DNA of 64,000 nucleotides from Eledone cirrhosa (GCA_964016885.1 OZ024741.1:311302001-311366000); one strand, 5' to 3'; numbered from the stretch's first letter, positions 18,501 to 56,366 are shown. A program made the numbers and translations. Notes: a model not told the origin generated them from the sequence alone.

Positions 18501-18952
18501 TCCCAGCGTGCATCTAAGATCCCGTTCCAGTCGCCCACTAACACTAAAGAGCGGGACGTTCCAAGAAAGGTCTCCAGACGCCGGAAGAAATCAGGCCGCC
18601 CTGCTCCTGTCGGGGCATAGACGGCCACTAACCTGAAAGCTTGCCCGTCTCCGCTGGTCACGTCCAGCACCACCAACTTACCTTCTGGGTCCAGGAAGAT
18701 GGCCCGTATGGCAAGATCCAAACCTCACCGAAAAAGCACAGCAACTCCTCCCCCCGATCCCGGACGGCTGGGAGACGCGTACACATCGTAGCCGCCGAAG
18801 ATCGGTGCGAAAGCCTGCGCTTCGGAGATTCTGGTCTCGCTGATGGCCACTACATCTATGTTTAGTGACCTGAGGTCGTTGAGCAGGTGGCCCTGCTTCC
18901 ATGACGACCCCAAGCCACGCGCATTTATGCTGCCTATTCTGAGTGAGGTCAT
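15528..18952 (-). pseudogene. Tx1/L1 ORF2 (AP endonuclease, RT, zf-RVT), several frameshifts
   Basis: APE: SINARGL, ISETR, VYAP, GDWN, (S)YLDR, DHK, GYWKLN. RT: KSPGLDGLPYELY, LDQSKAFDRVDH, SVRQGCPLS, AYADD. C-terminal C....ETVLHALVQC. Confidence 0.9.
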
Positions 18953-18986
18953 GTTGAAAAGGAGTGGAAAAGATGGGAAAGACCAC

Positions 18987-20696: not shown

Positions 20697-20893
20697 TTCG
20701 ATATCACGAGTTAATTTATTTTTTTCTTCTAAAAAAAAAAAATAATAATAAATAAATTAAAATATAATAAAAATTAAAAAAAATAAAAAAAAATAAATAT
20801 ATATATATATATATATACATATACATACACATATACACACACACACACTCACACACACATATACACACACATACATTATTAACAATAAACAAG

Positions 20894-31139: not shown

Positions 31140-34100
31140 TTATTATATTTACACACTTTTAAACTCTCCCGCTTCCTTAACGTTATTTATCTTTTCTTTA
31201 TTTTTTGTTCTCTATTCCGTAGAGAGAGGGGAGATGTGAGAGAGAAAAAGAGAGAGAGGGAGAGTAATATGATGGGAGAGATAGAGGGGGATGTGAGAGA
31301 GAAAAAGAGAGAGAGGCAGAGTAATGGGATGGGAGAGAGGGGAGGGGGAGAGTAGCAAGCGTTCATTAACTTTTATTTATTTATTATTTTTACACATTTC
31401 TTAACTCTCCCAATGTTATGTATCTTTTATTTATTTTTTGTTTGCTATCGTGTAGATAGAAAGAGAGGAGATGAGAAAGAAAAAGGGAGTGAGGCGGATG
31501 AGGAGGGAAAGACAATAAGAAAAGAGAAAAGATGGGAGAGAAAAAAAAGTAAAGAGGCAGGAGAGAGGGAGGGTGATTGAAGGGATTATTTAACTAACGT
31601 GTGTCCGCGTTTATATATATATTTGCACACACACATGTGTGTATTACGGTGGGGTGGGGGCGTTCTTTAGCAGACGATATATGTTACCCTCAAAGCTTAT
31701 TTTTTACATATGTCTAAAATAAATTACACCTAATATACATTCATATAAAGAGATCATTTAAAACATCTTTCTTGAGTTGTTTCTATTTCGGAAACAGTGT
31801 GTAATAATTGTTTCTACTTTTGGCATAAGGCCAGCTATTATTCCAGTACATTACTGGTACTTTATTTTATCGTGTGGTGTGTAATAATATCACTTCAAAT
31901 GCCTAGAAAACGTCCCAGATCATTATATGGAAGGTCATGTTCAGAGGCTAAGAGAAAGTAAACACCACGATCTGAAGAAAGTGAAGAAGTTCGGCATGCC
32001 CGTCTAGCTGCTAACAGAGCCCAAACAGCTTTAGCACGAGCACACCATTTGGATGAAAGGGAACAAAAGACTGCTGCTACACGAGAACAACAAATTAAGG
32101 AACAGCAGCAAATCAGACGAAATGATAATCAAGCTCATATTTCTACTGCCCGAGCAGGAGAACAAGCCACAAGTAAAATAAACTGGCTAATGGGTGCTTT
32201 TTCTTATAACCATTATGAAAATGAACAAATGCTGCCAGTATTGTGATGCCAAGAAGTGGGCAGCAGAACCCCCACCAAGTCTATGCTGCTCAAAAGGCAA
32301 AGTGAGCCTTAAAACAATACAAGAACCTCCTGAATTTATGAAGAATCTGCTCCTTCAGGATACACCAGAAGTACGACACTTCAATAAATACATCGTAAAA
32401 TATAATTCTGCCTTTCAAATGAGATCTTTTGGGGCTGACAGGAATGTCACTGACTTTAGATTCTGTACAACTTTAAAATTCAGGGACAGTGTTACCACTT
32501 AATGTGTGGCCTGCCACTTTCACAGGAACCTCACAAATTTGTGTAGGTTTAGTTCATGGGTGGAAATGAAACACAGGCACAACAAAGATGTACCAATGTC
32601 CATGGTGGATTGCAGTTGTACATAGTCATAAACGGCAGTGGCATGTCTACCTTTATTACTGACAAATGACTCAATGATGGTGGGCTAGATGAGGTCAAAC
32701 GGTATCAAATAGGTTGATACATCTCCAGCAAGGAAGCTATCGGGTGAATCTTTGGATTTGATATCCACGAACACCACCCAAGAGTGGTCAACATCGCAGT
32801 CCATCTTGAACATGGACAGAGAGTGTACTTCACTGAGATCACTGCTCATCAGTTGGCACAAGCATCACATGACACTACACTAACTGCATTCTTTAAACTC
32901 TGCCTGAATGATGAATTTGCTCGATCCCTCCTATATGTTTAAGACCCAACATACTACATCAGGCAATGAATATCAGATTAGCTAACTGTGGAATGCCAGA
33001 GCCAGATGAATAAATGGAGGTAGCACAAGACATTTTTCAGGAGACAAACTATGATATTCAAGCATTACGTAAGTTAGCGCATGAAAATGTACCTCGATTG
33101 ATGGATGACCAGAAATACGCCTACTACAACATCAACGAAAACATTCAAAATTACAGGTGAGGATTTACTTCATCGATGCTCCTGTTGGCACAGGCAAGAC
33201 ATTCCTCATAAACCTCCTGCTTGCAAATGTTTGCCAAAAGCAGCATATTGCCCTTGCTGTGGATTCAAGTGGCATCGCAGAAACACTTCTGGATGGAGGA
33301 AGAACTGCACACTCCATGTTTAAGCTGCCCATAGATCTCACACGGCATGAACAATCTTTTTGCAACATCAAGAACAACTCACCCAAGGGCAAGCTTCTGC
33401 AAACATGCAAGATGATAATTTGGGATGAAGATACTCTGAGCCATAAAGGAGCAATTGAAGCTTTGGACCGGACGATAAGGGATCTGAGAGAAAATAGTTG
33501 CATAATGGGAGGAGTGACAATGGTTCTTGCTGGTGATTTCAGACAAACTCTGCCTGTAATTCTTCGAGGGACTCGTGCTGATCAGGTCAATGCCTGTCTG
33601 AAAACATTCAATCTCTGGCCCCACTTTCAGCTGCTGAGCCTTACAGCCAACATGCAAGTGCACTTAACTAGTGACGAAGGCGTCAGTGAGTTTGCCATCC
33701 AACTACTTAAATTGGGAAATGGACCTCTTGAGAAGGACTCCAATGACCATATTCAGTTGTCATTTGGCCATATCATTGACACAGAACAAGAACTGATTGC
33801 CAGAGTGTTTCCAAACATTCAGACCAGGCAATGTGATCCGAAATGGCTCTGTGAATGAACAATCTTAACACGTAAAAATGTTGCTGTGAAAGAAATCAAC
33901 AGAAGGCTGCTGGAGATGTTACCGGAAGAGAAAGAAAATATGCTACAAATCAGTTGACACAATCACTTCTCAAGACCAGGTTGTAAACTATCCAACTGAA
34001 TTTTTGAACAGTCTTGAACAAGCGAGACTTTCCTCACACAACCTGATACTGAAGCTTGGAGCATCGGTTACGCTACTTCGCAATCTGGATCCTCCAAAAC

Positions 34101-37675: not shown

Positions 37676-39123
37676 GAAATCAGATGCTTTTATAGAAGTT
37701 GTATCTGTTAGAACACGAAAAGTGTGAAACAACAGAATGTTCACTTTTCGTGTTCTAACATATATGCCTAGCTTATCTAAAAATTTTTCGGGGATAGCCG
37801 TGGTGGTGGTGATCGTATGTCATTGGCTAATTTTCAACCAATCAGAGTACCTCTCTCTATATCTCTTCCACTGTTACTTACGCCTGTTTCTCTCTATCTG
37901 TTCCGTCTCTATTTATATCTCTTACGCTTTCGCTTTGCACTCCTCCCCTTCAATACCATCTCTCCCCCTCTCTATATATTTGTTACTCTATCGCTGCACG
38001 CTCCTCTCCTTCAATATATCAATTTCACACGCTTTACACTCCTTTATCCCCAGCGCCCCTATATATACACCCCCCCTCTCCCGCATCTATATTTTAATGT
38101 ACCGTTGCACCGTGAATATATGTGTCTATATATATATACATATATATTGTATATACACATTCATGTATGTGTATACACATTCATGTATGTATATACACTG
38201 GTTTTATGTGTGTATTGTAAATTTGTACTGTTAAAACACGAAACTAACATTCGATTGACACTTTGATTACCTGTACAGGCAATAGTTATTAGAATGCTGT
38301 TGAAGTGTGTATATATTTTTGGGGGACATCCTGTATATACACACATTATATATAATACAATAAACAGATAAATACACACATATATATATGAGCTTATTTA
38401 ATTATAAATATTGTGAATTTTTAACTCAGTTCAATTATATATATAAATGGCTTCTACAGGACTAGAACTGTTTCATTCGAAAGAAATCATCATAATATTG
38501 AGAGGGGGGACTAGATAAAATATTTCAAATCAAATGTGTATAAGTTATAAGTTAAAATGTATAAATAGAGACGATAGTGGAGGTATATCTGTTTAGTGGA
38601 ACAGTAGACGATAGAATTAAATACAGACGATAATCTCCCTTTAATGAAACAGCAGACGATAGAATTAAGGCAATTTAAATTTTAAGCATTTGCATTTTTG
38701 CCTTTCATCGTTACGGGGTCGATAAAATAAAGTACCAGTAATACACTGTCACTAGACGACTTTCAAATTGAATTGTTGGTTCCATTTCTTTAGTATTTTC
38801 AATTGTAGTTATCTACTTAAAAAGCGTTACACGGTTAGAGACATAATTCGTAAGTTATATCTTCCCTATTAAACCATTGCATTATTTCGCCTACAATAGA
38901 ACAAAAATGAAATGTTCTTTAAAGAAACAGGAATATAACTTTATAAAAAAAAAAGTTGCATCCGCTTCTTTTATCATTGATAATTTTTTCGTTTTAATAT
39001 TAATTGTTTTTTGTAGTTGTTTATATTAAAAATCTTACTGTAATATTTACTTAAACGAAGGCAAACATCTAAACTTATAGATTAATCTTGAGCGAAGGAC
39101 TAGATAAATCTCTCTCTCTCTCC

Positions 39124-39175
<52 letters not shown>

Positions 39176-39428
39176 GAAGAATGATAAAATTTCAAGCAAA
39201 GAGTTTAATTAGGTATATTTTGTAATATTATTAACTAATTATTATAATTAACGCTTCAGGCTTTGTCTATATACTGAAACAAATTTGTAAGTCATTACCT
39301 AATTAAACTCTTTGCTTGAAAATTTTATCACTCTTCGTTTTGAATTTCTCCTAAGTATTCAATGCTCTGTTGAGAAATACATTTTACATAAACAGTCTTT
39401 GTACCATTTATACGGTATTAATTACTTA

Positions 39429-39501
<73 letters not shown>

Positions 39502-39561
39502 CGTATGAACCGCCAAGTAGCGAGGTATCACTGTATATATGTTTAAATATATAGTGTAGCT

Positions 39562-41877
39562 GTGATGTATCTCGCGAGTGAATCGAGACCTGTCACTGAT
39601 TTTGGTGTCCCCACTGCCGATGTGAATGAGCAACGCTGCACTTGTGAATTGGGTCTTGATGTTGCAGGCAGTTCATATACTTACAATGATGCGGTCCCAC
39701 AAGCTTGTTCACATTCCTGTGCTAATAATCTAGATGGGCATATTAAATTGGATGTGAAAGCAGCTTACCGGATGCGGAATCGGGAGAAGTTGAGACAAAA
39801 ACAGGCCGATTATAGAGCTGTGAATTTTGCTAAATTAACACAAAAACAGGCCAAGTATAGATGTTCAAAACGGTATGAGTTGGCAAACAAGCAGGCCAAG
39901 TATAGATCTGCAAATTCAGCTATTATATCTCAAAAGCAAGCCGAGCGTAGAGCTTCTAAACGTACCGAGTTGGCTAAAGAGCAGACCAAGTACAGATCTG
40001 CAAATCAAGACAAAGTATTACAAACAAAGGCTATGTATAAAATTCACCATAAAGATAATATACAGTCTTATGAGAAAACATATTATAAAAAAAAGTTTCT
40101 TCATAAGCGGTCTTTGTATCAAATGAAGAAACTAAATAAAATGGTTGACTTCCGGATGCAGCATCAGATCTTGATGTCCCAATTTGTTAAGTCATATAAA
40201 AAGACAATAACAGATACCAATCTTCGCAACGACGCATATAGTCACGTGCTGAGTGTGTTCTCCAGATCTGTTGGGATGCGAAATTTTGTGTGTGCTCAAT
40301 TAAAAATAAATGTTAAAGCTGTGCATACATTGATGGAAAAGGTCAATGCTAACGGTTTGTTGCATTATTGGGGAAATCAACATTATCACAGTTCCACCAA
40401 TGAGCTTCCTAATTTTGACAAGAGCACTGCGAAGTACATGAAAATGGATGAGTTTAAAAATCAGTCCGTTGAGAAAGTCCGAATAGTCGTTATCAATAAT
40501 GAGGAGACAGAGAACATTGTGAATGACATGGCTAATGCTGACGAGCAGAATGATGATAATGATGTGTCTAAATGTTTGGTTAGACCTTGCGGGTCTTCCA
40601 TATTAGATACATGTCCAAATGACTCAGCTACTCGTCTAACTTTGTGCCAAAGAATTGATGATAAACTTCCAAAACTCAATCCCGATATGACAGTTGCTGA
40701 AATAAGGCAGTTGATCGAGAAATATGAGTTTTGCAATGTTACTCATGATAATGATCAGCAATGCATCGGTCAAACTGGCTGCACCAGTGAATTTGGCTTT
40801 TTAAAATCCATAGCAGTTCACTCGCCAAAGTTGCGCACATTGCTGAGGAAAATTTATAAAGTTCGGTCCTTATGTATTTGGCTCAACAAGTACAATGAAG
40901 CTGTTTTCAATGGCGATTGGACCAACTTTGAGAATTTGACAGACGTTGCCAACATTGAGCGTGCTATTGCAGTTAAATTCAATAATATGTGCACTGGTTT
41001 CAATGATGTCGAACACACTGATGCAGATGTCATTCATAAATATGGTAATCAAGTTCAAAGATTTCAATCTGAAATTACCAACTATAAAATCCAACATTGT
41101 CATATCTGCAAACTGCGCAAATATAGCAAGGAACTAAAAGTTTGGGATAATTGGAACTCTAGATATTTTAAAACGGCCGTTGCAAAGGATGCAATAACTG
41201 CCAACTACTCTTTGCCTTGCACAGTCTGCACAACATGCACTACACATTTGCGAAACAGTGGGGTGCCTTCAATGGCCTCAATAAATGGCTTGGGCGTTGC
41301 TGCCGTTCCCAAAGAACTTGCTGATCTTAATACATATGAGCGAATACTTGTACAACGGGCCAAATGTTTCGTCAATGTAATAAAACTGGTGCCATACTCA
41401 TTCAAAGGCAATATTTCAGCATGCATTTCCGCTATTAAAGGAATTGCAATTCACTTGCCTTTGCCTATGGACGGAACTATTAACCGCACCATGGATACGT
41501 TACCTGCGCTTCAAGACGACATGCTTAAAATAGTCGTTGATAGCTTGCCTTCGCGGAAACAAATTATCTGGCGTTCAATGGTAGACATGAGTAAAGTATT
41601 GAAGGCACTTGATTGGCTTGCAGCAAACAATGTAATGTATGCCGATGTTAAGATCAATCGCTACGCCGATACGGAAAATGAAAACATTGTCGAGTGCTCG
41701 GGAGTTAATAATGCCAAATTCGATAATCTTTTACTTAAATCGAATGCTGGCATTACCTATGAGCATCACACTGTTAAAGACATGAATCCGTGTCTCCCTG
41801 CAGACACTGACTTGGCTTTGTACAAAATGAAAAGAGTGGAAGGCGATTTCATTGCAGACAATGATAAAAAAACTTGA
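39562..41877 (+). CDS. N-terminal part of a Helitron2/Helentron-like Rep-helicase: basic 15-aa repeats plus Cys-rich DUF6570-like region
   Basis: 771-aa open frame. Seven 15-aa K/R/Q/Y repeats (39781-40095). CHIC...CTVCTTC...P..A..NGL...P.EL..L...E..L, KG...HLP and KV..AL.WL..NN..Y motifs, typical of the region preceding Helitron-like Rep. Start codon uncertain. Confidence 0.8.
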   Translation: MMYLASESRPVTDFGVPTADVNEQRCTCELGLDVAGSSYTYNDAVPQACSHSCANNLDGHIKLDVKAAYRMRNREKLRQKQADYRAVNFAKLTQKQAKYRCSKRYELANKQAKYRSANSAIISQKQAERRASKRTELAKEQTKYRSANQDKVLQTKAMYKIHHKDNIQSYEKTYYKKKFLHKRSLYQMKKLNKMVDFRMQHQILMSQFVKSYKKTITDTNLRNDAYSHVLSVFSRSVGMRNFVCAQLKINVKAVHTLMEKVNANGLLHYWGNQHYHSSTNELPNFDKSTAKYMKMDEFKNQSVEKVRIVVINNEETENIVNDMANADEQNDDNDVSKCLVRPCGSSILDTCPNDSATRLTLCQRIDDKLPKLNPDMTVAEIRQLIEKYEFCNVTHDNDQQCIGQTGCTSEFGFLKSIAVHSPKLRTLLRKIYKVRSLCIWLNKYNEAVFNGDWTNFENLTDVANIERAIAVKFNNMCTGFNDVEHTDADVIHKYGNQVQRFQSEITNYKIQHCHICKLRKYSKELKVWDNWNSRYFKTAVAKDAITANYSLPCTVCTTCTTHLRNSGVPSMASINGLGVAAVPKELADLNTYERILVQRAKCFVNVIKLVPYSFKGNISACISAIKGIAIHLPLPMDGTINRTMDTLPALQDDMLKIVVDSLPSRKQIIWRSMVDMSKVLKALDWLAANNVMYADVKINRYADTENENIVECSGVNNAKFDNLLLKSNAGITYEHHTVKDMNPCLPADTDLALYKMKRVEGDFIADNDKKT

Positions 41878-44800
41878 GTTGTTGTGCTTTCCTTGTCTTT
41901 ATCCAACTGGTCAGTTTGGCATTTTCGTGGACAATAGACCGTTTGGCGCTGTAAAGCCATACATGTTCATAAGAAACAGACTGAATCATAGCGACTCTAG
42001 ATTTCGGCGAGATATACAATATCTCATGTTTTGTCTTGATAAAGCCGACAAGAGAGGCATTGATTCTGGTATATATGCCATCATGAAGACCACCAAAAAC
42101 AGCCGCATGACTATAAGCGAGTTTAGAAGGCGGCTTCATGAAAATGACAGGCACCTAGAGGGCAATTTAAATATGATGATGGCCAATGTCCGTGGTTCCA
42201 AGCAGTTTTGGTCTAGAAAATGTTCAGACTTGATGGCTATGGACGAGAAATTTGGCCCGGCCCACTTGTTCTTAACTTTGTCTTGTGCAGAGTACTTTTG
42301 GCCTGATCTGAGAGAGTTCCTGGAAAAGTTGAATGCTGACATACCAGACATTTCTAGAAAACGCACCAATGAGTTGTGCGCGGATGACGTGGTGGCTGTT
42401 AGCGAACATTTTCACCATCGGTTCACCACCTTTATGAAAGAAGTTGTTAAACATACCAATTCTCCGTTTGGTATTGTCGAGCACTTTTTTTGGAGGTTGG
42501 AATACCAAATGAGAGGTGCTCCGCATGTTCATATGAAATTATGGATTAAAGATGGCCCTATTATGGACAGAGACGACAAGTATGCTATTCAGACGTTTAT
42601 ACAGTCCATGATCACATGTCGCATGCCGTCCAATGTAGAAAGCCCCGTTTTGTCAGACTTGGTGTTGCGTTTTCAACGACATGTGTGTAGTGGATCCTGC
42701 AAAAGGCAAATATTTTCGAGTGGTCGTTTTTACACTCGATGCAGGTTTGGATTTCCTCGTCCTATCGGGAATTTCAATTTGCTTAGCGTCAACGAGTGCA
42801 TAAAATCTCGACACAAAGGTAGAGCTGTCAAAAAGTTGTACAAGCTTGACAGACGACAAGGGGAAGAGTGCATCAATGACTACAATCCTGTTGTTCTGTA
42901 TGTCTGGAAAGCTAATGTCGATATCCAATACATCGGTGAAGATAGCATGATTCTAAACCGATATGTTACTAGTTATCAGACAAAGTCCGAAAAGACTGAA
43001 ACTGAAGGTATTTGGGCTGAGATTGACAAGTCCAAGTCCATTTACTCCAGATACAAGAGTGTCGGACTTAAGCTGATGGGCAAGCGTGATACAGGTGCCT
43101 ATGAGGCTGCAGACAAATTGCTTGGCCACCATTTTTATGGATGCTCTGAAAGCCTCATTTGGATTGGGGCCGATTTGCCTAGTTACCGATCCCACAGGTT
43201 CAGGCCTCAGTATGAACTGGATAAATTGAAACCGTATTCTACCGATCTTTATTACGAGAATATGGTCGAAAATTGGTATCCAAACAGGCCTGATTCGATG
43301 GAGCACATGTGTTTGTATGAACTTGCGAGTAAATACGAACATGTGAATCCAATTGGTAACAGCAATTTTGATGACGACTTCAGGTTGAGAAATAATCTTG
43401 GCTATTTCAAATCTGTGAAAGAGCGGATTGTGAAGTCGCCAAACATTAGATTGACTGCAGATACCTGTGAGCGCTATCACCACAACCTGCTTATGCTCTT
43501 TAAACCTTGGCGAGACGAGGAAAAAGACTTGCTGGGAGGTTGTGAGACTTATAAAGAGTCTTTTGAACAGTGTGCAAACCATTTATCTGAAATGGTCAGG
43601 TTCCAGAATGTGCGCAAACGTTTGGAGAATGCGCTGGAACAAGCCAAACATATTCAAAACGAACCTCAGTCTCATGATAATGATGACCATTCTTGCGGTG
43701 ATCACATGGAGGCGTTGGCAGTTGATGATGCTAATGTCGATTTGCCTTGCATGAGAGATGTCAATGAGGATGCACTGAGGCATAAAGAAAATAAACTGAA
43801 TGAAGTGCAAAGAAAAATTTATGACGATATCGTTGCCGGTATTGACAAACAAGACAAACATTGGGACAACAGCAAACCTTATCCGAGATGTAGTTGCGAT
43901 GATTGTCCACAAGTCTTGAAATTTGTTTCAGGTGTTGGTGGCACGGGCAAGAGTTTTTTGATAAATGTACTGGCTGATAAAATTCAGTACATGTATCCAA
44001 ATGACAATGGCCCGAGCGTAGTGATATCGGCACCCACAGGAATGGCTGCTTTCCAACTCAACGGCATGACTGTTCATCGAATGCTAAAGCTCAAAGTGCA
44101 GCACGGTAAAACTCCCGTGTACGATGATCTACCAAAGGACTTTTTGAAAATGCTGAGGATGGGGCTTCAATATGTCCGACTGATCATAATCGATGAGATT
44201 AGCATGGTCAGTCATTTGCAGTTGGCATTCATTCACTTGAGATTGTGCCAATTGTTTTGTGACTTTGCCCAAGGCATTTCTCCTTTCGGGCGAATGAACA
44301 TTGTTGTTTTTGGAGATTTGCTTCAATTACCGCCTGTTAGAGAAAAGCCGGTGTTTAACAAAGTTACTCACCAAGATGCACAAAGATCATGCATAGGCGT
44401 CAGCAGCCACCATTTGTGGAGGTACTTCAAGTACGACGAGTTGACAGTCAACATGCGTCAGAAAGAAGACTTGGATAATTATGTTGACATGCTCGGCCGA
44501 ATAAGGCTGGGTTCACCACTTGATTCAGATATTGAAATTCTAAATAAGCATAGAATTGATCTCAACGGCAAAGCTTCCATTGATCAGGTTGCTTACAAAA
44601 TGTGTGAGCTGATACAGACTTCTAATTTGAGTATCGTCTGTATCATGCCTCTAAACGAGTCAGTAGAAAAGTTTAACGCTGCAATGCTCAATAAACTTGG
44701 CATTAATACCGTTGAACTTATGGCTATTGATTCGAATATGAGGCAAACCAAATGTCAAAAGAAAACAATAAGAAAAAAGCTGACCACTAAAAAGACTTCT

Positions 44801-46285
44801 GATACTGCTGGCCTTGAAACTGTTCTTAAAGTTGGCGTTAATGCTCGAGTTATGCTTAAACGCAACATCGATCTTGAGAAAGGCTTGTGCAATGGTGCAA
44901 TGGGAACTGTAAAGCAACTCAATTATGAGTTTGGAAAAATTACTTCCATTGACGTTCTCTTTGAGAGTACAAACCAAATTGTTGCCATCAAACGTGTCAA
45001 AGCCGATTACGAATTGTCTCCTAGTGTTTTTATCACTAGAGAACAATATCCCTTGTGCATTGCATATGCAATTTCCATCCACAAATCACAGGGAATAAGT
45101 GTCGATGGAGTCGTTGTTTATTTGGGCACTGGCGTTTTTGCAGACGGTATGGCCTATGTAGCCTTGTCTAGAGCCCGCAAACTGTGCAATGTTTACTTGA
45201 TTGATCTTGATCCAACGAGTTTGATCATGTGCGACTCTAGTGCTTGGAGAGAATACAATTATTTGAGAGAGACCATTAATATGGGACCGCTTCCATTGTG
45301 TAACGTGAGGCCCAACAGTATTGGACAGGCCAAAAAAGCAACTAAAAAAAGTAAATTTGCTATTAATATTGACAGTGGAATGGTCAACTTGGCGAATCCA
45401 AAAAAGGCCAGAACTGAGAAAACGGTTGCAAAGCCGTACATTTCGCTGATCAATGAGAGAAATGCTTGCTTTGTAAACAGCACCATGCAAGTTATACGCC
45501 AGCTGGTGTTGTTGGTTGAACACATTCAGTCCACTGATGATGTTGCTATTCGTGAAATTAGCGATATTATATCGTCATCTGGAACTAAATCGGTCGCAAA
45601 TTTGAGAAATATTCTCGGTGGCAGGTTTAATAATGGTACCCAACAGTGTGCGCACGATTTTTGGAAGCACATTTATCAGTTGTTCTCTAAAAAAATTAAA
45701 CAACTATTCACCTTTGAGGAAAATACTTGGCTCAGCTGCACTAGAAAACACGAGCACAATTGCCCCAGATTGCACAATGATGAATGTTATTGTGCATCGA
45801 TCAACGGCTGTGGCACTTGCACACATATAACTGATGTCAAGTCTGATCTGACGTTGCAGCCTGTTAATGGTCGGCAACAATTCAAAAGCTTGCTCAAAAC
45901 TGATGTTTCGCTCATTAAGAGATGCGATCTGTGTGGCATTGACACCGAGCACTTTGGTACAGTTAACCATGTATTTCCAAACACAATGCGTTACTTGGTT
46001 GTTTATTTGAATAGATTCGAATATACAAACAATCAGATGATCAGAATTGATTCTGAGTTGATGAATTTCTCTCCGAACAAGCAGAGCATTTACGGCCAAA
46101 AATTCCGACTAATCGGCTCCGCCTTGCATTCACTGGCTAGTGCAGACTCCGGGCACTACACCAGCATCGTCCGCAATCAGGACAGATGGTACATTATTAA
46201 CGATGCCGTTTTTTCCAAGCAGCATATAGGTTTCCCGTCGAAACTGCTTAACAACTACTTGTTGTTTTTAGAAAAGTTGAATTGA
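41861..46285 (+). CDS. HUH-Y2 Rep + PIF1 (SF1B) helicase + C-terminal USP/peptidase C19-like domain
   Basis: Rep I FLTLSCAE; Rep II RLEYQMRGAPHVH (His at 42524 and 42530); Rep III YVTSYQTK. Walker A GVGGTGKS, Walker B IIIDEISM, FGDLLQLPPV, NMRQ, SIHKSQG, AYVALSRAR. USP Cys box LINERNACFVNSTMQ, QQCAHDF, His box H...SGHYTS...W..INDA. Confidence 0.9.
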   Translation: MIKKLELLCFPCLYPTGQFGIFVDNRPFGAVKPYMFIRNRLNHSDSRFRRDIQYLMFCLDKADKRGIDSGIYAIMKTTKNSRMTISEFRRRLHENDRHLEGNLNMMMANVRGSKQFWSRKCSDLMAMDEKFGPAHLFLTLSCAEYFWPDLREFLEKLNADIPDISRKRTNELCADDVVAVSEHFHHRFTTFMKEVVKHTNSPFGIVEHFFWRLEYQMRGAPHVHMKLWIKDGPIMDRDDKYAIQTFIQSMITCRMPSNVESPVLSDLVLRFQRHVCSGSCKRQIFSSGRFYTRCRFGFPRPIGNFNLLSVNECIKSRHKGRAVKKLYKLDRRQGEECINDYNPVVLYVWKANVDIQYIGEDSMILNRYVTSYQTKSEKTETEGIWAEIDKSKSIYSRYKSVGLKLMGKRDTGAYEAADKLLGHHFYGCSESLIWIGADLPSYRSHRFRPQYELDKLKPYSTDLYYENMVENWYPNRPDSMEHMCLYELASKYEHVNPIGNSNFDDDFRLRNNLGYFKSVKERIVKSPNIRLTADTCERYHHNLLMLFKPWRDEEKDLLGGCETYKESFEQCANHLSEMVRFQNVRKRLENALEQAKHIQNEPQSHDNDDHSCGDHMEALAVDDANVDLPCMRDVNEDALRHKENKLNEVQRKIYDDIVAGIDKQDKHWDNSKPYPRCSCDDCPQVLKFVSGVGGTGKSFLINVLADKIQYMYPNDNGPSVVISAPTGMAAFQLNGMTVHRMLKLKVQHGKTPVYDDLPKDFLKMLRMGLQYVRLIIIDEISMVSHLQLAFIHLRLCQLFCDFAQGISPFGRMNIVVFGDLLQLPPVREKPVFNKVTHQDAQRSCIGVSSHHLWRYFKYDELTVNMRQKEDLDNYVDMLGRIRLGSPLDSDIEILNKHRIDLNGKASIDQVAYKMCELIQTSNLSIVCIMPLNESVEKFNAAMLNKLGINTVELMAIDSNMRQTKCQKKTIRKKLTTKKTSDTAGLETVLKVGVNARVMLKRNIDLEKGLCNGAMGTVKQLNYEFGKITSIDVLFESTNQIVAIKRVKADYELSPSVFITREQYPLCIAYAISIHKSQGISVDGVVVYLGTGVFADGMAYVALSRARKLCNVYLIDLDPTSLIMCDSSAWREYNYLRETINMGPLPLCNVRPNSIGQAKKATKKSKFAINIDSGMVNLANPKKARTEKTVAKPYISLINERNACFVNSTMQVIRQLVLLVEHIQSTDDVAIREISDIISSSGTKSVANLRNILGGRFNNGTQQCAHDFWKHIYQLFSKKIKQLFTFEENTWLSCTRKHEHNCPRLHNDECYCASINGCGTCTHITDVKSDLTLQPVNGRQQFKSLLKTDVSLIKRCDLCGIDTEHFGTVNHVFPNTMRYLVVYLNRFEYTNNQMIRIDSELMNFSPNKQSIYGQKFRLIGSALHSLASADSGHYTSIVRNQDRWYIINDAVFSKQHIGFPSKLLNNYLLFLEKLN

Positions 46286-47779
46286 ACTTTCACCGCCAAT
46301 GTACAGCAGCAAGCATTTTTTGAAAAATTTGCTTGATCCTAAGAAAAAGTAACAGAGGTTGAGAGATGTCTTGTTATCTCTAACTATTGCTTTGTTTCTA
46401 TTTCTTTAGGGCATTTCTGAATTTATTAGAATATGAATCCAGTCCCACCATTGAGATATATTATCTTCATGGTGAATGTCTGCTGTTTTTTTTACCCTCG
46501 GGAAATTGTGAAATTGGTTTGCAGCTACTATGGCCTTTTGAGATATAATATTGAAAACACATGTCACTCAACCATATTCGTGTGACCATTTTGTCACTGA
46601 ACTATACTCTCCGTATGATATCAATTTTTATGTATTATAATTTTATCAATATTTTATCTTAAATTAAGCATATTTTTATCTATTATTATCTAATTTTATA
46701 AATCTTTTATTTTTTATCCATTATATCAACTACTTTCAATGTTGTATTATATTTTAAATTCCAATGTATTAATTTTTGTACCAGAAACTCTCTAGCGCTT
46801 TAGCATTTAAAGAGACCATATCCGACCATAATTCTCTCGCCTCTTTCTATTCAAACTGGCCATAATTAGCCACTCATACTGATAGTAAGGTATTTTTCTC
46901 AAAACAAATAACATAAAACTCTCGTAGATTCAATATTATATGAGATAATTATATAAGGTAAAGCCTTTTATGTGAAAATACATACACTATTTTTGTGCCT
47001 TTTTTAGCAACACAAAAATCCTCTGATACTTTGGATTAATATGGCTGACTAAAATTATATATCTGCACATTGTGTGGTGTCAACTATATTTTGTTTTGTA
47101 TTTTATGCTTTCTTTAAACATTTTTTTTTTAGTCTTATATTTTAAAAATATATTAAAATAAATTATAAACGTTTTTTATTTACATATCTTTATAATGCAC
47201 CTTCCAATATTGATTGTAACGTTTATTTACTTTTATATGAATGATCTAGTTAATAGTTACTTGTCCATTTGCCAATATAATATGCTTTTGTAAAAGTAAT
47301 TATTAACTATTATATATTAAATTACAAGATTTATTTATATAACATGCTTATAATATTGGTTGTATCATATTTACTTGTATATTTGTCTATATTGTTTGTT
47401 TTGTGTTAAATTATTTTATTATTATTATGTTGGATTATTTTTTTAATTATTATGTTAAACTATTTGTATGTAATATTTAATTTTTTTATTAATTCAACTA
47501 TAATAATCGACATATGAAATTTAAATCAACAATAGGAGAAAAAAAAATATCTTATTGCACAAACAATAATTCTGCACAAATGTTGCTCCATTATTAGATC
47601 TAATGTTGCAACGATGCAGTTAAATGTTGTCTGTGTATTTTAAAAAAGATTTGCTTATAATCTTTTCAAATTTCATTACGCCAATGATTCAAGCTCAAAT
47701 TGACATTATCTAAAACATTGTACAAACAGCGGTGGATTAGCAGTAGTGAACAGATAAATCAGTCAATTTATTAAGATTG

Positions 47780-48435
47780 ACTTGGCATCAATCAGCAAGA
47801 CCTTCATTAGCTGCTCTCCAGCCATCTATTTAAAGCTGTATAAATCTATGGTACGAATACACTTGGAGTTCGCGTCATCAGTCTGGAACCCCTATCTTGC
47901 TCAGAACATTGACCTCCTGGAAACTGTTCAGAGACATGCAACCAAGCGCATACCCTCCATCAGACACCTACCATACCCTGAATATTTTGCTTCCCTCTGG
48001 CAATGGACTTGGTAAACACCCACAAAGTTATTAACCATCCGACCAACAACAACCCCGAACACCTTTTTGATCTCCATGTGTCTAACACGTGGACATGCCT
48101 ACAAAGTCAGAAAACAACACAGCTCCCATGACTTTAGGAAATATTTCTTCATGCTCAGAGTTGCTGAAGGATGGAACAAACTTCCTGCATCAGTTGTTAG
48201 CTGATGACACACTGCATCCTTTAAAACCATCATACATTCCGAAATACACCAAAACTACACCTGATGTCCCCCTTCCATACACATGCACATATGTGTATAT
48301 CATGACTCATGCACTGTTCTTTTTTCCTGACGTTTTTATATTACCCTATGTATTATATATGCACTTTTGATGAGTTGTAGTGCACCTCAGCATTGTACAC
48401 AATATTTTCATTATTATTATCATTATTATTATTAC
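47780..48435 (+). mobile_element. 3' fragment of a CR1-clade LINE with (ATT)n tail
   Basis: LYKSMVRIHLEFASSVWNPY...LETVQRHATKRIPSIRHLPY, then TRGH...FF..RV...WNKLP-like remnants. Confidence 0.8.
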
Positions 48436-48904
48436 ACTCATTGATCCATTTTGCACTAACTCTGCATCAAGCACCCTCACCTAAATATTAACCAATCAAG
48501 GATCCAATACAGCTATCTGTTGGATGAGTATTGTATAGTGCCAAAAACGAAACCAATCAGTTTAGCAGAAAGTTTCCAGACAAGAAACACGCATATTTTG
48601 CTATCCTCAAACACGTTTACACATGGCATGAAATATAACTAATCCGAGATGGCTAGGTTTCATCTTCTAACTGGATATACGAAATCTATTATGTCTTGAC
48701 AACAACATGAGGTAACATTATGTTATTCACAGACACACTTTGTACACTGTTCCATATCAGAATGTATTTCCTTCGTCACATTCACAAACAGTATTGAAAA
48801 TATGTTCTTCGGCAAATAAAAATGTTTTGTTCATAATATTTCAACTAGCGATTGCTCTACTCCACGCACGACCACCATAAATTAATGACCAGCTCAACAC
48901 AAGT

Positions 48905-49075
48905 TTTGGTAGAGCGTCATACACCATGCTTTGCAGTATTGTTATGGTCCTTTGCATTCTAAGTTCAAATCCTGCCGAGGTTAACTTCGACTTTCATACT
49001 TACTAATTCGATAAAATAAAGTACCAGTAATGGACTGCCGTAATGGATTTGTGCCGAAAAATAGAAACACTATTA
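48905..49075 (+). mobile_element. Nin/Deu-domain SINE, diverged (a smaller fragment is at 38698-38748)
   Basis: aagttcaaatcctgccgaggttaacttcgactttcat...gataaaataaagtaccagtaa...gtgccgaaaaatagaaac. Confidence 0.7.
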
Positions 49076-49624
49076 ATGTGCAATAAGAGCAAAATATAAC
49101 GACATTGCTCAATTATTTTATCTAATGTTGTAATAACACAAGGAAATGTTGTTTGTGTATTTTTTTTTATATTTGCTCATAGGCTTTTACAATTTCGCTC
49201 AGCCAACAACTATTAAAAAGTGAGTTGCTTAAGATAACAATTTAATCACAAATTGTTGCTATCTTTTAATACACTCCAACAAGTCATCAAATTATGTACA
49301 ATAAAAACAAATCTTATTAATTTGCTCAGGGAATATAAAGAAAATGTATATACACTGATAATTGCAATTGTATGTAAATATTTTGTTTTTGTATTGTTTA
49401 TTTTATGCTTTCTATTATGTATAATATATTGATTTAATATTGATTGTTTTTTGTAGTTGTTTATATTAAAAGTCTGAAAATATTTTTATACATCTTACAC
49501 TAATATTTATAAGATAATTTAGAATAACAATTACATAATCTAATTACATTACAACGATAATTTATTATTAATATATATCCTGTTTAACTAGAGTTATTAC
49601 AAGCGTTGCCTTAAAAAAATATTA

Positions 49625-50583
49625 AACTAGACATGAAAAATGCGCAAGCTCAAAAGTGCCACAGAATGTTATAATAAACCTTCAAAAGTGTGGGACTAGA
49701 GTTGTTGCTAAAAAATATTGTAATCATTATATATCGTACATTCTGTGGCATCCTTTATAAAAATAGCTTAAACCAACGAAGCCTTTATTTTTACGCTATT
49801 TCACTTAGTTAATTCTTAGAGTGTAACATATAAAAATAAATACATCTATGTTTAATGTAATAACAGCTATAAATAATTACGTAATATTATTATCATATAC
49901 TCATAGTAACAAAATAATTGTGTTGAAACTTAATATGATGCTTATATGAACGATCAAATCTATAATGATAATTTCTTAAATATACTAATAGTAAAATAAT
50001 TTAGTTATCTATTGTTACATTTTCATAGAACTATAATATTAACAATCGTATTGCATTATCAAATTTTTATCACTACAAACTTTCATATTGGAATTACCTT
50101 AAGCCACTTATTATTACTTCGCTTTCGTACTTTTACAGCTGTAGATATTGCGCTGTATCTTATATCTAATATCAATATCTCATGGTAATTTGCATGAAGT
50201 GTAAAATAGGTTTATTAATAACTTTAATATGAAATGTATTATACAGGGCTGCGGAGTCGGCCAAAAATTGACTGGCTCCAACTCAGGATCCGATACTCCA
50301 TTATTTCCTAAATTTCAGCTCCGCAGCTCTGTTATTATATTAATTAATTTATTTTATAGTTGTAAATCATATTTTTATATGTTACACTCTAAGAATTAAC
50401 TAAGTGAAATAGCGTAAAAATAAAGGCTTCGTTGGTTTAAGCTATTTTTATAAAGGATGCCACAGAATGTACGATATATAATGATTACAATATTTTTTAG
50501 CAACAACTCTAGTCCCACACTTTTGAAGGTTTATTATAACATTCTGTGGCACTTTTGAGCTTGCGCATTTTTCATGTCTAGTT
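49625..50583. repeat. Foldback element: 214-bp inverted repeats (49625-49838 / 50370-50583), 531-bp AT-rich spacer
   Basis: The arms read as exact reverse complements by eye. Outer ends aactag...ctagtt. Confidence 0.9.
50244..50331. mobile_element. 88-bp hAT-like MITE
   Basis: TIRs CAGGGCTGCGGAG / CTCCGCAGCTCTG. 8-bp flanks gtattata / ttattata. Confidence 0.7.
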
Positions 50584-50725: not shown

Positions 50726-53700
50726 TATTTTCTAAATATGTCTAAATTTAATTACACCTAATATACATTCATATAAAGAGATCATTAAAAACAACTTTAC
50801 TGATTTGTTTCTATTTCGGAAACAGTGTGTAATAATTGTTTCTAATTTTGGCATAAGGCCAGCAATTATTCCAGTGCATTACTGGTACTTTATTTTATCG
50901 TGTGGTGTGTAATAATATCACTTCAAATGCCTAGAAAACGTTCCAGATCATTATATGGAAGGTCGTCTTCAGAGACTAAGAGAAAGATAACTCAGCGATC
51001 TGAAGAAAGTGAAGAAGTTCGGCATGCCCGTCTAACTGCTAACAGAGCCCAAACAGCTTTAGCACGAGCACACCGTTTGGATGAAAGGGAACAAAGGACT
51101 GCTGCTACACGAGAACAACAAATTAAGGAACAACAGCAAATCAGACGAAATGATAATCAAGCACATCGTTCTACTGCTCAAGCAGGAGAACAAGCCACAA
51201 GTAAAATGAACTGGCTAATGGGTGCTTTTCCTTATGACCTCCAAAAGGACTACTGCAGTAATCCACAAATCAACATTGGGAAAATGAACAAATGCTGCCA
51301 GTATTGTGGTGCCAAGAAGTGGGCAGCAGAAACACTAAGTCTATGCTGCTCAAAGGCAAAGTGAGCCTTAAAACAATACAAGAAACTCCTGAATTTCTGA
51401 AGAATCTGCTCTTTCGGCATACATCAGAAGCACAACACATCAATAAATACAACATAAAATATAATTCTGCTTTTCAAATGACATCTTTTAGGGCTGTAGG
51501 AATGTCACTGACTTTAGATTCTGTACAACTTATAAAATTCAGGGACAGTGTTACCACTTAATGGGCGGCCTTCTGCCACTTTCACAGGAACCTCACAAAT
51601 TTGTGCAGGTTTACTTCATGGGTGGAAATGAAACACAGACACAACAAAGATGTACCAATGTCCATTGTGGATTGCAATTCTACATAGTCATAAAGTTACA
51701 AGAAATGATTCACCAACATCACATGTACGTCAGTGTATTTAAATATGCACTGGAGCATTTTATCAACACCAGAGATCGTAAAATCATCATTAGGGAAGAC
51801 AAACCCCCAGCTTCAGAACATGAACGCAGATTCAATGCACCTGTCACTGATGAAGTTGCAATCATAATGGTTGATGAACAGCATGAACGACGTGACATTG
51901 TTTTGCAAAAACGAAGTGGACATTTGAAGCGAATTTGTGAAAATCATAGAGCCTATGATTCACTCCAATATCCGCTCATCTTTTGGAATGGTCAAGATGG
52001 ATATCATTTTCAGCTACGGCAGATCAGCCCAGGAAAGGGACAAGAGACTGGCCGATCAATCAGCTGCAGAGAATTCTATGCTTATCATTTCATGGTACGT
52101 GACCACTTCACCCAAGTTCTGCAATTCAAAGAAGTAACCAGCCAGTTCATGGTGGACATGTATGCCAAAATTGAAACAGAAAGATTAGGTTTTCTGCGAA
52201 GGAATCAAACTAATTTGAGGGCAGATAACTACATCCACCTTAGAGATGCCATCAATTCTGATGTTGACTCAAAAAATATTTGCCAGCCAATCATACCACC
52301 ACGAAGCTTCACGTGAGGACCACGTTACATGCATGAACGTACGCAAGATGCAAATGCCTATGTCAGAAAATTTGGTCGGCCAGATCTCTTCATTACATTT
52401 ACATGCAATTCAAACTGGTCAGAAATATCAAATGAATTATTTCAAAATCAAAAACCAAAGGATCGAGATGGTCTCATTGATCGGGCTTTCCATGAAAAGC
52501 AAAAAAAGACTCATCTGGCTCCTAAAAGAAGGAAGACACTTTGGTGAGCTTAGTGCTTGGATGACCACTATTGAGTGGCAGAAGAGAGGTCTTCCTCACT
52601 CTTACACACTAATCTGGTGCAAGGAGAAGATAAGACCAGATGATGTTGATAAGATCATTTCAGCAGAGTTGCCTGATAAAGGTGTTGATTCAGAGCTCTT
52701 TGAAACCATCAAGTCCAAACTCATTCATGGTCCATGTGGAGTCATCAATCCAGCCCCTCCCTGTATGAAAGATAAAAAATGCAGCAAACATTATCCTAGA
52801 GTTTTTATTCGGGAAACTCTGACAATAATGGATACCCCGTTTATCGTAGGCGTAGATCAGAACATGGAGGCAATACGGCAAACCTAACAGTTCGAGGAGA
52901 TGAGCTGACCATAAACAATCAGTGAGTCGTCCCACACAACACATTGTTGTGTAAACTTTTAAAAGCTCATATCAATGTTGAGTATTGCAGCTCCTTCAAG
53001 TCAATCCGATATGTCACAAAATATATCAACAAGGGCAGTGACATCGCTACCTTTATTACTGACAAAGAACTCAATGATGGTGATCTGGATGAGGTCAAAC
53101 GGTATCAAACCGGTCGAAACATTTTCAGCAATGAAACTATCTGGTGAATCTTTGGAGTGATATCCGCCAACGCCACCCAATAGTGGTCAATCTCGCAGTC
53201 CATCTGGAAAATGGACAGAGAGTGTTCTTCACTGAGATCACTGCTCATCAGTTGGCACAAGCATCACATAACACTACACTAACTGCTTTCTTTAAACTCT
53301 GCCAGAATGATGAATTTGCTCGATCACACCTATATGCTGAAGTCCCAACATACTACACCTGGACCGATTGCAAGACCAGGAATCGAAGAAAGCAGGGTCA
53401 TTTAGTGGAAGGTCATGAAGTCAAGTCAAGTCATGCTATTGGGCGTGTTTACAATGTCCATCCCAACAACAGAGAATGTTTTTATTTACGGCTACTTCTG
53501 CATACTGTTCGATTACCAACGTCATTTGAGGATGTTAGATGCTTGAGAGGAAGGGAGTGCGCAACATACCAAGAAACATATAAACAGCATGGACTCCAGC
53601 ATGACAATGGACACTTGAATAAGTGCCTAGAAGAAGCAGCAATCACTCAAGTAGCCAGTCAAGTAAGACAATTATTTGCTATTATGCTCACAGCATGTGG

Positions 53701-56366
53701 AATTGATGAACTCATCTACTCTGGCAGGAGTACAAAAACAACATGTCGGACGACTATCTACACCTAGCCCGAAGATAACATGGCAATATGTATATGGAAT
53801 ATACCCCCAATCAAGCTCTCTGTGACCTGTCCCATCGAGATCAGGCAATGAAGAGCACATTAGCTAACTGCGGGATGCCAGAGCCAGATGAATAAATGGA
53901 GGTGGCACACGACATTTTTCAGGAGACAAACTACAATATTCAATAATTGCGTAAGTTTATGGATGAAAATGAAACTCGATTGATGGATGACCAGAAATAC
54001 GCCTACCACAACATCATCGAAAACGTTCAAAATTACAGGGGAGGACTTTTTTTCATCGATGCTCCTGCTGGCACAGGCAAGACATTTCTCATAAACCTTC
54101 TGCTTGCAAAAGATCGCCAAAAGCAACGTATTGCCCTTGCTGTAGCTTCAAGTGGCATTGCAGCAACACTTCTGGATGGAGGAAAAACTGCACACTCCAT
54201 GTTTAAGCTTCCCACAGATCTCACACGGCATGAACAATCTTTTTGCAACATGAAGAAGAACTCACCCAAGGGTAAGCTTCTGCAAACATGCAAGATGATA
54301 ATTTGGAATGAAACTACTATGAGCCATAAAGGAGCAATTGAAGCTTTGGACCGGACGATAAGGCATCTGAGAGAAAATAGTTGCATAATGGGAGGAGTGA
54401 CAATGGTTCTTGCTGGTGATTTCAGACAAACTCTACCCGTAATTCTCCGAGGGACTCGTGCTGATGAGGTTAATGCCTGACTGAAAACATCCTATCTCTG
54501 GCCCCACTTTCAACTTCTGAACCTTACAAGCAACATGCAAGTGCAGTTAACTGGTGCCCATATTCAGTTGCCATTTCGCCATATCCTTGACACAGAACAG
54601 GGACTGATTGCCAGAGTATTTCCAAACATTCAGACCAGGCAATGTGATCCGAAATGGCTCTGTGAACGAGCAATCTTAACACCTAAAAATGTTGCTGTGA
54701 AAGAAATCAACAGAAGGCTGCTGGAGATGTTACCGGAAGAGAAAGAAATATGCTACAAATCAGTTGACACAATCACTTCTCAAGACCAGGTTGTAAACTA
54801 TCCAACTGAATTTTTGAACAGTCTTGAACAAGCGGGAAATCCTCCACACAACCTGGTACGGAAGCTTGGAGCATCGGTTATGCTACTTCGCAATCTGAAT
54901 CCTCCAAAGCTTTGTAATGGCAGAAGACTCATCATCAAAAATATGAGGTCCAATGTTCTAGAAGTTGCAATCATGGCAAGACAATTTGCTGGTGACAATT
55001 GTTTCATTCGCAGAATACCTCTGAAGCCAACTGATTTGCCATTTGAATTTCAAACACTTCAATTTCCGATCAGGCTCAGTTTTGCCATGACCATTAATAA
55101 ATCTCAAGGGCAATCATTGAAAGTCGTTGGGTTGAATCTGGCAGATCCTGTCTTTTCACATGGGCAACTCTATGTTGGCACAACAAGGGATGGGAACCCT
55201 GAATGTCTCTTGATTGTGGCATCACAGGGCAAACGCAAGTACCAGATGCTTTGGAATGAGCAATATGGTAATTCCTACTTCAATGACAATACACACACAG
55301 ATCCCAATTCCTTAGTTATCTAATTTGCAACGAATTCCGAAGCCGCAAATTTACTGCTTGGTGTTGCTTTGGAAGAATATGCAGGCATACCCCGGTACCT
55401 CTGTAATATTAATGAGGACTTTGTTGCGTCGAAATAGCAGCCAATATTCCTTCAAATCCCACCTTACTTTCTTAGGTATGTATATATGTATTAGCAAAAT
55501 CCATTTCAAATCACAAAAAACTGTCTTACACACATACATGTGTGTGTATGTATCTATGTATGTCATGTGAGCCATTATACCTGTTGGTATAGCTAATAGA
55601 AATAGAAAGCAAATCTCCCTCAAACAAGATCCTACTGCCATAGAGGCAAAGATTGGTGAAAGCTACAGTGTACAAATTTAAATACACTTTCTCCGAATTA
55701 CAGAAATGAGTAAGTAAATGCTTCATTCAATCATAAACCAATGCTAAATTTATTTTCTTATTTTATAGTGAATTGGCAGTATCGGTAGAGGGTTGGACGC
55801 CATGCTTTCTAGCATAGTTACGTGCCTTTACAGTCTGAGTTCAAATCCCGCCGAGGTTAATTTTGCCTTTCATCTTTACGGGGTCGATAAAATAAAGTAC
55901 CAGTAATGTACTGGTTAATTGCTGGCCTTGTGCCTAAAGTAGAAACAATTATTTTATTTATGGTTTTTAAAATAGTCTTTACATGTTGTTTGAATTTCAG
56001 AGGTTCAGATTGAGCACAAAAAAGAAAAAAAAATGTAAGAAGTAAGAAAGAAAAGGTTAAATAAAAAAAATCTAAATGTATTTTTTTGGTCATGCCCTGA
56101 CAACATACCCAATGATTCATCTATGAGTAAAGCATTATATATGCTGACTGTAATAAGGAGCAGTATTCAAAAAATCAACACTGGAAAAAACTAATATCTT
56201 TATCTAGATGACTTACTTTGACCAAACGTCAATAAATATTCTACTATAATTCCTACTTTGGTTAAAATTCAGCAATCATATTTGAATGGTCAAATATTTT
56301 GTAATATGTGCCAAAAATATTGTAACTTTCATAAAATACCCGGGTATCACCGGCTAGTTCAGCTAG
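50726..56366 (+). mobile_element. Helitron copy 2, 3' part; near-complete canonical RepHel pseudogene about 50927-55258
   Basis: YDSLQYPL, QFMVDMYAKIETERL, Rep I PDLFITFTCN, Rep II IEWQKRGLPHSY, Rep III YVTKYINKG, DAPAGTGKT, GDFRQTLPV, TINKSQGQS, FSHGQLYV. Multiple frameshifts. 3' end ccgggtatcaccgg...CTAG at 56363-56366. Confidence 0.92.
55767..55959 (+). mobile_element. Nin/Deu-domain SINE inserted in the 3' region of Helitron copy 2, with ttattttat TSD
   Basis: Absent from the homologous site in copy 1 (about 34995-35005). Confidence 0.8.

Follow-up and report, generated by a model that had tools for sequence, protein, structure and literature searches.

The element and its coding sequence

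The window, that is, the whole stretch of DNA that was analysed, comprises 64,000 nucleotides of one strand of the Eledone cirrhosa genome (GCA_964016885.1 OZ024741.1:311302001-311366000), and it contains a full-length Helitron of the HLE2 type at 37704..50581 on the + strand. The element is 12,878 bp long, begins with 5'-TC, finishes with CTAG-3', lies between an A and a T, and encodes a Rep-helicase (RepHel) protein with a predicted ubiquitin-specific protease (USP) domain at its C-terminus. The first-pass annotation had recognised a RepHel-USP coding region at 39562..46285; this finding is real, but the element around it is far larger, with boundaries common to other copies. Twenty other copies were fetched, all of which share 37704-50581 wholly or partly.

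The coding region had been described as about 6.7 kb long with all motifs intact. The motifs are all there, but in the open reading frame analysis the window copy is divided into two frames, 39547-41877 and 41831-46285, by one surplus A within the A run at 41866..41872 (+ strand), which constitutes a +1 frameshift and breaks this copy. The run is one base shorter in 14 of the 15 other copies in which it is readable; the longer run occurs only in the window and in one of the 15, and that copy has none of the nine private variants of the window. The shorter run is also present at full depth in contigs from four independent public runs, which represent at most two samples of one study and in which rare variants drop out. 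Genuine slippage and an assembly error are both possible, and the data fit either.

The first frame, with its earliest ATG at 39565, encodes the N-terminal part of the protein (39565..41877, +), which contains five basic 45-bp repeats (39794-40004, +), Cys-rich segments and a DUF6570 domain (about 41260-41658; Pfam E 4e-18). Each repeat encodes a basic 15-residue unit, and the number of repeats differs between copies, with one fewer in copy L032. In an atlas search with the N-terminal 572 residues, only DUF6570 leads were obtained, with scores below 0.9. The second frame encodes an HUH-Y2 Rep domain at 41966..42990 (+; FWRLEYQMRGAPHVH; Helitron_like_N, PF14214, E 4e-29) with the HUH motif at 42524-42532 and the tyrosines at 42962 and 42974, then a PIF1-family helicase at 43922..45250 (+; PF05970, E 3e-24; PF21530 and UvrD_C_2) with the Walker A motif GGTGKS, and finally the USP/C19 domain at 45431..46285 (+; UCH, PF00443, E 4e-13). 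All three share one reading frame, and the His pair and the Tyr pair of Rep are conserved in 21 of 21 copies. The protein thus has the Rep followed by a PIF1 helicase that characterises Helitron-like elements, and its earlier assignment to the Helitron2/Helentron side (HLE2) is upheld by DUF6570 and by the helicase tree, where it joins the Helentrons. No apurinic/apyrimidinic (AP) endonuclease (Exo_endo_phos) follows the helicase, as had been stated: Pfam gave no match in the window protein at E up to 1. Rfam gave four matches, all far under the gathering scores.

The C-terminal domain

The assignment of the C-terminal domain to the USP fold agrees with several lines of evidence. The PF00443 match scores 50 bits against a cut-off of 23.9, and USPs make up 25 of the 26 sequence matches of the domain in the PDB. 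The motif coordinates of the first-pass annotation are right: the catalytic Cys (codon 45467) lies in LINERNACFVNS and is followed by QQCAHDF, by His 46154 in SGHYTS and by Asp 46202 in INDA; the oxyanion Asn is present as well. Asn 46199 aligns with the usual third catalytic position. When the conservation of the triad was checked, Cys, His and Asp were found retained in 20 of 21 copies, window included.

A structural model built from an 86-sequence alignment reached a predicted local distance difference test score (pLDDT) of 90.5 and a predicted template modelling (TM) score of 0.88, whereas a single-sequence fold reached a pLDDT of only 32. The top Foldseek match of the model is USP21 (E 8e-20, TM 0.78), followed by USP12, USP2 and USP46, and the compact USPs of giant viruses match it to a similar degree. 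The oxyanion Asn, the catalytic Cys, four finger cysteines, GHY and Asp occupy near-invariant columns of the alignment. The domain carries an additional Cys/His-rich insert, modelled at a pLDDT of about 60. In the 47 USP domains found at the C-terminus of relatives, the Cys-His-Asp set is complete in 33; four of the others end before His or Asp, and several more are the first, inactive member of a tandem. The catalytic residues are retained at 20–30% identity across insects and other hosts. The QQD-x-x-E box, QQCAHDF in the window, has Asp in 29 and Cys in 7 of the 47 domains. A word-index search that used just the USP region found nothing among 673 candidates. The C-terminal domain has a USP-type fold with its catalytic residues intact, and is a predicted deubiquitinase.

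Copies and age

The copy number of the family to which the window element belongs (family 1), a count that the first-pass annotation had called for, comes to about 650 5' ends genome-wide. The exact pattern of the 5' hairpin described below matched 646 times in forward and 648 times in reverse orientation, with 0 matches for the control, and the USP end was matched at least 28 times, on 25 scored genomic candidates. A single open frame, of 2,230 or 2,245 codons from stop to stop, is present in 7 of the 20 fetched copies. Nineteen of 20 short copies sampled are complete internal-deletion derivatives of 3.5–5.9 kb.

Between the window copy and an intact one there are 12 coding substitutions over 6.7 kb. 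Statements about the cited articles, here and below, refer to the parts of their text that were covered. At the octopus substitution rate of 0.0036 per million years (PMC13282606), this divergence corresponds to well under a million years, an estimate that assumes the octopus rate to apply (the nearest named protein is a fragment from Octopus bimaculoides, 70% identical). The window copy had been thought either a recent arrival or under selection. Its youth is confirmed, but not the arrival, because family 1 also has an older subfamily (synonymous divergence, dS, 0.13-0.22), because there is a second USP-bearing family (family 2) with 47% protein identity to family 1, and because of the O. bimaculoides fragment. 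These sequence comparisons indicate that the lineage is a long-standing resident that has lately multiplied in a burst. Selection on the window copy itself is not supported, given its frameshift and its changes relative to the intact copy, 3 of which are synonymous and 9 non-synonymous.

Family 2 is found at loci L109-L148 (G000; for example, C13 near 18.885-18.896 Mb and C10 near 33.072-33.083 Mb). It consists of a young subfamily, with two copies of 11.2 kb that are 99.4% alike and both contain stops, and an older one, and its terminal layout is that of family 1. At L144 (C28), a family-2b copy is followed downstream by one 3' end of family 1 and two 5' ends of family 2, an arrangement that suggests clustered or nested insertions.

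The ends of the element

The 5' end forms a terminal hairpin at 37706..37760 (+) with a perfect 19-bp stem (DNA fold -21.3 kcal/mol, z -8.7), the stability of which was equalled by 0 of 200 shuffles. The final 82 nucleotides contain no strong short 3' hairpin of the HLE1 kind (fold z -0.7). A 10-bp subterminal inverted repeat, read from the sequence, has its left half in the hairpin loop (37732..37741, +) and its right half at 50538-50547; in family 2 it is 13 bp long, and such short repeats are an HLE2 feature. The 3' terminal arm (50370..50581, +), which ends in CTAG, is matched by an inner inverted copy of the terminus at 49626..49838 (- strand), and the two arms are identical over 213 of 213 bp. 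Genome-wide, the 3' pattern has 1037 forward and 1009 reverse matches, with both arms and older subfamilies counted.

The base preceding the 5' end is A in 51 of 51 cases (TA in 49), and that following the 3' end is T in 56 of 58, a tally which may contain a few mutated inner arms. Two of 30 tandem-array sites are informative as to target duplication, the others being TA repeats or unique DNA; both fit a join without duplication, with 19 local matches to 0 at one and 4 to at most 1 at the other. A TA duplication and a T/T insertion were rejected on the strength of the flank tally and these empty sites. The ends therefore have the HLE1 features of 5'-TC, CTRR-3' and insertion between A and T, and the canonical description of HLE2 ends does not fit them, with A before and T after the element and the hairpin at the 5' end. 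Family 2 is built alike: its elements start with TC, have a hairpin with a compensatory change between subfamilies, and finish with CTAG or CTGG. At 45 metagenome loci inspected for the ends of relatives, all on short, single contigs, a 149-bp inverted repeat follows the USP of L198, and L196 has CTGG at the contig edge.

In both families the 3' end recurs in inverted orientation 0.4-1 kb further in. The first 120 nucleotides of the two arms are 100% identical within each of the four subfamilies, while they are 96%, 88% and 59-62% identical to those of other subfamilies. After insertion the arms mutate largely independently, with a handful of copy-specific changes found in both arms of older copies; the 46 inner-arm changes stem mostly from one deletion-bearing copy (L061). 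Two of 36 young copies (L063 and L107) have the segment between the arms in the opposite orientation. Occasional recombination or conversion between the arms can explain their matching. The retention of the inner arm in 19 of 19 complete young non-autonomous copies, all deletion derivatives, suggests a role in cis.

At L168 (G000:C1:52.92-52.93 Mb), 3' ends of one orientation recur at a spacing of about 5.5 kb, possibly a tandem array of an older subfamily without inner arms. An inverted loop in the 5' hairpin is seen at 2 of about 647 ends in family 1 (G000:C4:62841277 and C24:24714451) and in one family-2 copy (L117/L118). A parvovirus-like flip-flop in every round was rejected, with only 2 flipped 5' loops among about 647 ends.

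Selection on the USP and its loss

Selection was assessed by the ratio of non-synonymous to synonymous divergence (dN/dS) between subfamilies. For family 1, where 6 young copies were compared with 3 old ones, it is 0.26 for the USP (p 4e-5), 0.19 for Rep and 0.16 for the helicase, and in family 2 (2 against 6 copies) it is 0.44 for the USP (p 1e-3) and 0.13 for both Rep and the helicase. The USP is thus shown to be under purifying selection between the subfamilies of both families, and the dN/dS check put forward in the first-pass annotation succeeds at this level, though not for the window copy.

A derivative of family 2 is cut after about 45 residues of the USP. The copies in question (L113/L114, L119/L120, L123-L126, L137-L140 and L145/L146) have the His/Asp half of the domain deleted. 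An N-terminal deletion is present as well in six of the seven aligned copies of this kind, and the N-terminus is kept in one. The cut derivative probably moved in trans.

Relatives and the domain following the helicase

A Rep-helicase search gave 312 proteins, and the results cover the 120 that were listed (99 ingroup and 21 outgroup). Precomputed annotation places PF00443 in the same protein in 32 of the 120, for example, in Rhodnius, Linepithema, Bemisia, Diaphorina and Cyamophila. When the position after the helicase was typed with profiles made from Pfam-located seeds, a USP was found in 42 of the 99 ingroup proteins, an OTU protease in 37, Ulp1/C48 in 1, no recognised domain in 19, and an AP endonuclease in none. 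Therefore, 80 of the 99 carry a ubiquitin-type protease at the C-terminus. Eleven of the 19 without a recognised domain have tails of less than 150 residues, and seven group with the ctenophore protein that carries C48 and are seemingly cut short. Among the 21 outgroup proteins, 8 have an AP endonuclease and 13 stop at the helicase.

Both domains were present in 109 of the 121 rows considered for the tree, and 53 ingroup and 6 outgroup sequences were left after truncated rows and those more than 70% identical had been dropped. The support for the ingroup is 100, and at least 4 changes are needed to account for the USP, OTU and Ulp1 labels, compared with a mean of 16.7 after shuffling. Groups with a USP branch off at the base of the ingroup. 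A single OTU-bearing clade was rejected (approximately unbiased test, p-AU 5e-85), in a test on a quick tree (LG+G4) for which the group was chosen after the first tree had been inspected. An ancestral USP that would have been replaced several times is the simplest reading, which depends on the root. In the helicase tree the clade joins the Helentrons (SH-aLRT 94), apart from the two HLE1 fragments of the window, HLE1 being thinly represented. Of the HLE2 signature in Rep, the F/Y-x-R ahead of motif 2 is present as FWR, and the variable position of RG[S]PH is occupied by A instead of S or L, like in the majority of the clade.

Some relatives (P0223, P0225, P0228, P0255, P0212, P0217, P0252 and P0253) have tandem USPs, the first often without the Cys, N-terminal Ulp1/C48 repeats, or a USP at both ends. 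P0158, the closest full RepHel-USP homologue listed, is filed as a protein of a gammaproteobacterial metagenome-assembled genome on a 7-kb contig and is probably eukaryotic contamination. Collections of prokaryotes and viruses gave helicase-only matches and no element.

Proposed role of the protease

The Rep of an HUH transposase nicks the 5'-TC end and stays bound to the DNA through tyrosine, while the helicase peels off the strand until transfer ends at CTRR-3'. A transposase covalently bound in this way resembles a DNA-protein crosslink, which is cleared through ubiquitin and SUMO. The USP would strip ubiquitin off the transposase, chiefly in this covalent state, and so spare it from degradation, and the 213-bp inverted repeat would fold the displaced 3' end into a duplex, replacing the short 3' hairpin of canonical Helitrons. 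The presence of unrelated protease folds in one position argues for a shared activity, deconjugation, and the in-frame fusion for an enzyme tethered to the transposase.

Judged from sequence and model, it is fairly probable that the C-terminal USP cuts ubiquitin, while the arguments that its main target would be the transposase or its DNA adduct are about evenly balanced. There is likewise roughly an even chance for the overall reading of the window copy as a frameshifted young HLE2-type element whose RepHel protein ends in a USP that would shield the transposase.

Several observations weigh against the shielding of the transposase. The constraint on the USP is weaker than that on Rep and the helicase (0.26-0.44 against 0.13-0.19); the USP-cut derivative accounts for 7 of 13 aligned family-2b copies, and, as one of these keeps its N-terminus, the USP is possibly dispensable. 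A domain of this kind is not needed for the transposition of many Helitrons, and 13 of the 21 outgroup proteins stop at the helicase. The Cys of QQCAHDF may alter ubiquitin binding, and one of the replacements is a SUMO-type Ulp1 protease. For the fold-back, 2 of 20 older loci have a 3' end without a detectable inner arm.

The alternative that survives best, although it is appreciably less probable, is an active deubiquitinase directed at host targets at the donor or target site, such as ubiquitinated histones, PCNA, or repair and silencing factors, which would ease access or bias repair. The fold, residues and selection data fit it equally, a helicase bound to DNA would deliver the tethered USP to chromatin, and the nearest folds include USP21, USP12/46 and USP1, which are chromatin or repair enzymes. 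At 15-19% identity, however, likeness of fold is uninformative on substrate, and the replacement by OTU or Ulp1 would better fit a job of low specificity.

It is rather unlikely that the domain strips a ubiquitin-like modifier (SUMO or NEDD8) in place of ubiquitin. A USP-fold SUMO protease does exist, which speaks for this alternative, as do the altered QQD box, the Ulp1/C48 domain in the same position of a ctenophore element and the N-terminal C48 in two USP-bearing relatives. In addition, the VTD proteases of Helitrons cleave NEDD8 too (PMC9741609). On the other hand, the domain matches Pfam UCH but, at E up to 1, not Peptidase_C98, its best structural matches are USPs with ubiquitin bound, and the usual substitute is OTU (37 against 1).

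It is very improbable that the domain is a polyprotein protease, an idea entertained in the first-pass annotation, which would split up the 2,200-residue transposase. The protein is long and multidomain, coronavirus papain-like proteases share the fold (weak viral matches, TM below 0.5), and cleavage of RepHel subunits has been suggested for the OTU domains of Helentrons (PMC4067079); but GG is absent from the helicase-USP linker of the window and present in only 6 of 43 linkers, and 33 aligned proteins have no conserved di-glycine column outside the helicase motifs. The least likely alternative, a captured passenger without a role in spread, would accord with the capture of gene fragments by Helitrons and with the multiplication of the USP-truncated derivative, but is largely refuted by the selection data (dN/dS well below 1 in two families), and the catalytic residues are kept even among the distant relatives.

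Returning to the proposed protection of the transposase by its own USP, the finding that protease folds of three unrelated kinds have repeatedly taken one another's place suggests that hosts in general restrain rolling-circle transposases by clearing them through ubiquitin. A wider, tentative proposal, which we hold to be rather less likely than not to be correct as a whole, is that of a widespread unnamed branch of animal rolling-circle elements that would depend on a C-terminal ubiquitin-type protease, with the USP repeatedly swapped for OTU or Ulp1. In its octopus members, Helitron1 ends would go with an enzyme of the HLE2 kind, and replication would stop on a self-homogenising 200-bp fold-back, a terminal arrangement peculiar to them; the clearance of the covalent complex by the host via ubiquitin would be countered by the element in cis.

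Neighbouring sequences

A decayed LINE 3' fragment, which we take to be CR1/L2-like from its motifs, lies inside the element at 47758-48204 and is common to full-length copies. The element is flanked by decayed canonical HLE1 Helitrons at 33109-33858 and 51492-55323 (EWQKRGLPH motif; helicase pieces). Broken retroelement frames, presumably L1/Tx1-like, RTE-like and Penelope-like, occur at 15528-20756, 21770-24415, 27928-29486, 57254-57940 and 61941-62633.

Comparison with known systems

The domain shares the thumb-palm-fingers fold, the Cys and His boxes and the finger cysteines with cellular USPs (USP21, USP2 and USP12/46), which we take to be MEROPS C19, and with those of giant viruses. It differs from these in its low identity (15-21%), its lack of accessory domains, QQC in place of QQD, and the extra Cys/His-rich insert.

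The possible novelty of the cargo, raised in the earlier annotation, does not stand, as UCH (PF00443) was already catalogued in HLE2 elements by HELIANO (Li et al. 2024, PMC11417382) and is present in the 32 listed homologues. HELIANO has it among 20 captured domains, almost confined to HLE2 and with an enrichment in subgroups c and d, which resemble the present element in having an HLE2 RepHel, DUF6570, PF00443 and no AP endonuclease. Compared by description, its text counts UCH among the domains in separate ORFs, whereas here it is in frame and C-terminal; subgroups c and d are mostly from lungfish and axolotl, and the text covered does not analyse UCH with regard to catalysis, structure or selection. 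Table S1 of the same article includes a Repbase HLE2 from Rhodnius, which may belong to this clade.

In the Helentrons with VTD or OTU domains (Erven et al. 2022, PMC9741609), which form the sister clade of the ingroup in our trees, the deubiquitinase is in the RepHel ORF as here, but they carry an AP endonuclease and VTD or OTU. The C-terminal AP endonuclease typical of Helentrons is found in 0 of 99 listed ingroup and 8 of 21 outgroup proteins. Erven et al. showed the Helitron VTDs to be deubiquitinases with a preference for K48 and K63 chains, proposed protection from the proteasome, and stated that different deubiquitinase classes can serve, VTDs being the only class assayed (PMC9741609). 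No transposition role was shown for the assayed VTDs in the literature covered, and ubiquitin is not mentioned in the main text, as covered, of PMC12001565 and of a Paramecium preprint (10.1101/2025.11.06.686955). The present family makes the reason why Helitrons carry deubiquitinases testable, for it is young, 7 of the 20 fetched copies are open, both ends are defined, and one Cys provides a natural control.

In the literature searches, which covered search listings and the papers cited here, there is no account of a swappable C-terminal protease, of an animal HLE2 with TC...CTRR ends, or of a long terminal fold-back; Helitron1-type ends on an HLE2-type transposase came up only for the proto-Helentrons of oomycetes. 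The USP cargo is already catalogued in HLE2, and the ends and the protease swapping appear to be undescribed.

As to the ends, the Fusarium Helitron2 elements FoHeli1-5 (HLE2-reverse; PMC5148889) share the 5' hairpin and the short asymmetric inverted repeats, the 3' one lying 20-50 bp from the end, and FoHeli1 and FoHeli2 begin with TC, like this element. They end in ATTTT or CTCCTGT, not CTRR, and no protease domain is described for them in the text covered. The Phytophthora proto-Helentron (Thomas et al. 2014, PMC4067079) is similar in that its RepHel, also on the Helentron side, lacks an endonuclease, and in that it ends in CTAG-3', inserts between A and T with no duplication, and has a 5' stem-loop and short inverted repeats. 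It differs in beginning with 5'-TT and not 5'-TC, in its SET and TIR cargo in place of the USP, in RGSPH against RGAPH, and in its oomycete host; set beside this element by description, it has no long inverted copy of the 3' end in the text covered. HELIANO reported zero proto-Helentrons in 404 other genomes (PMC11417382), and in a more recent article they are classed as a subtype of Helentron (PMC8788227). The present element has the structure of a proto-Helentron, namely an HLE2 protein, 3'-CTAG, A/T insertion and a 5' stem-loop, apart from the 5' dinucleotide. The presence of Helitron1-type ends on an animal HLE2 protein weakens the rule that ties the ends to the protein class, and, because of this mixture, annotation tools may split or mislabel such elements.

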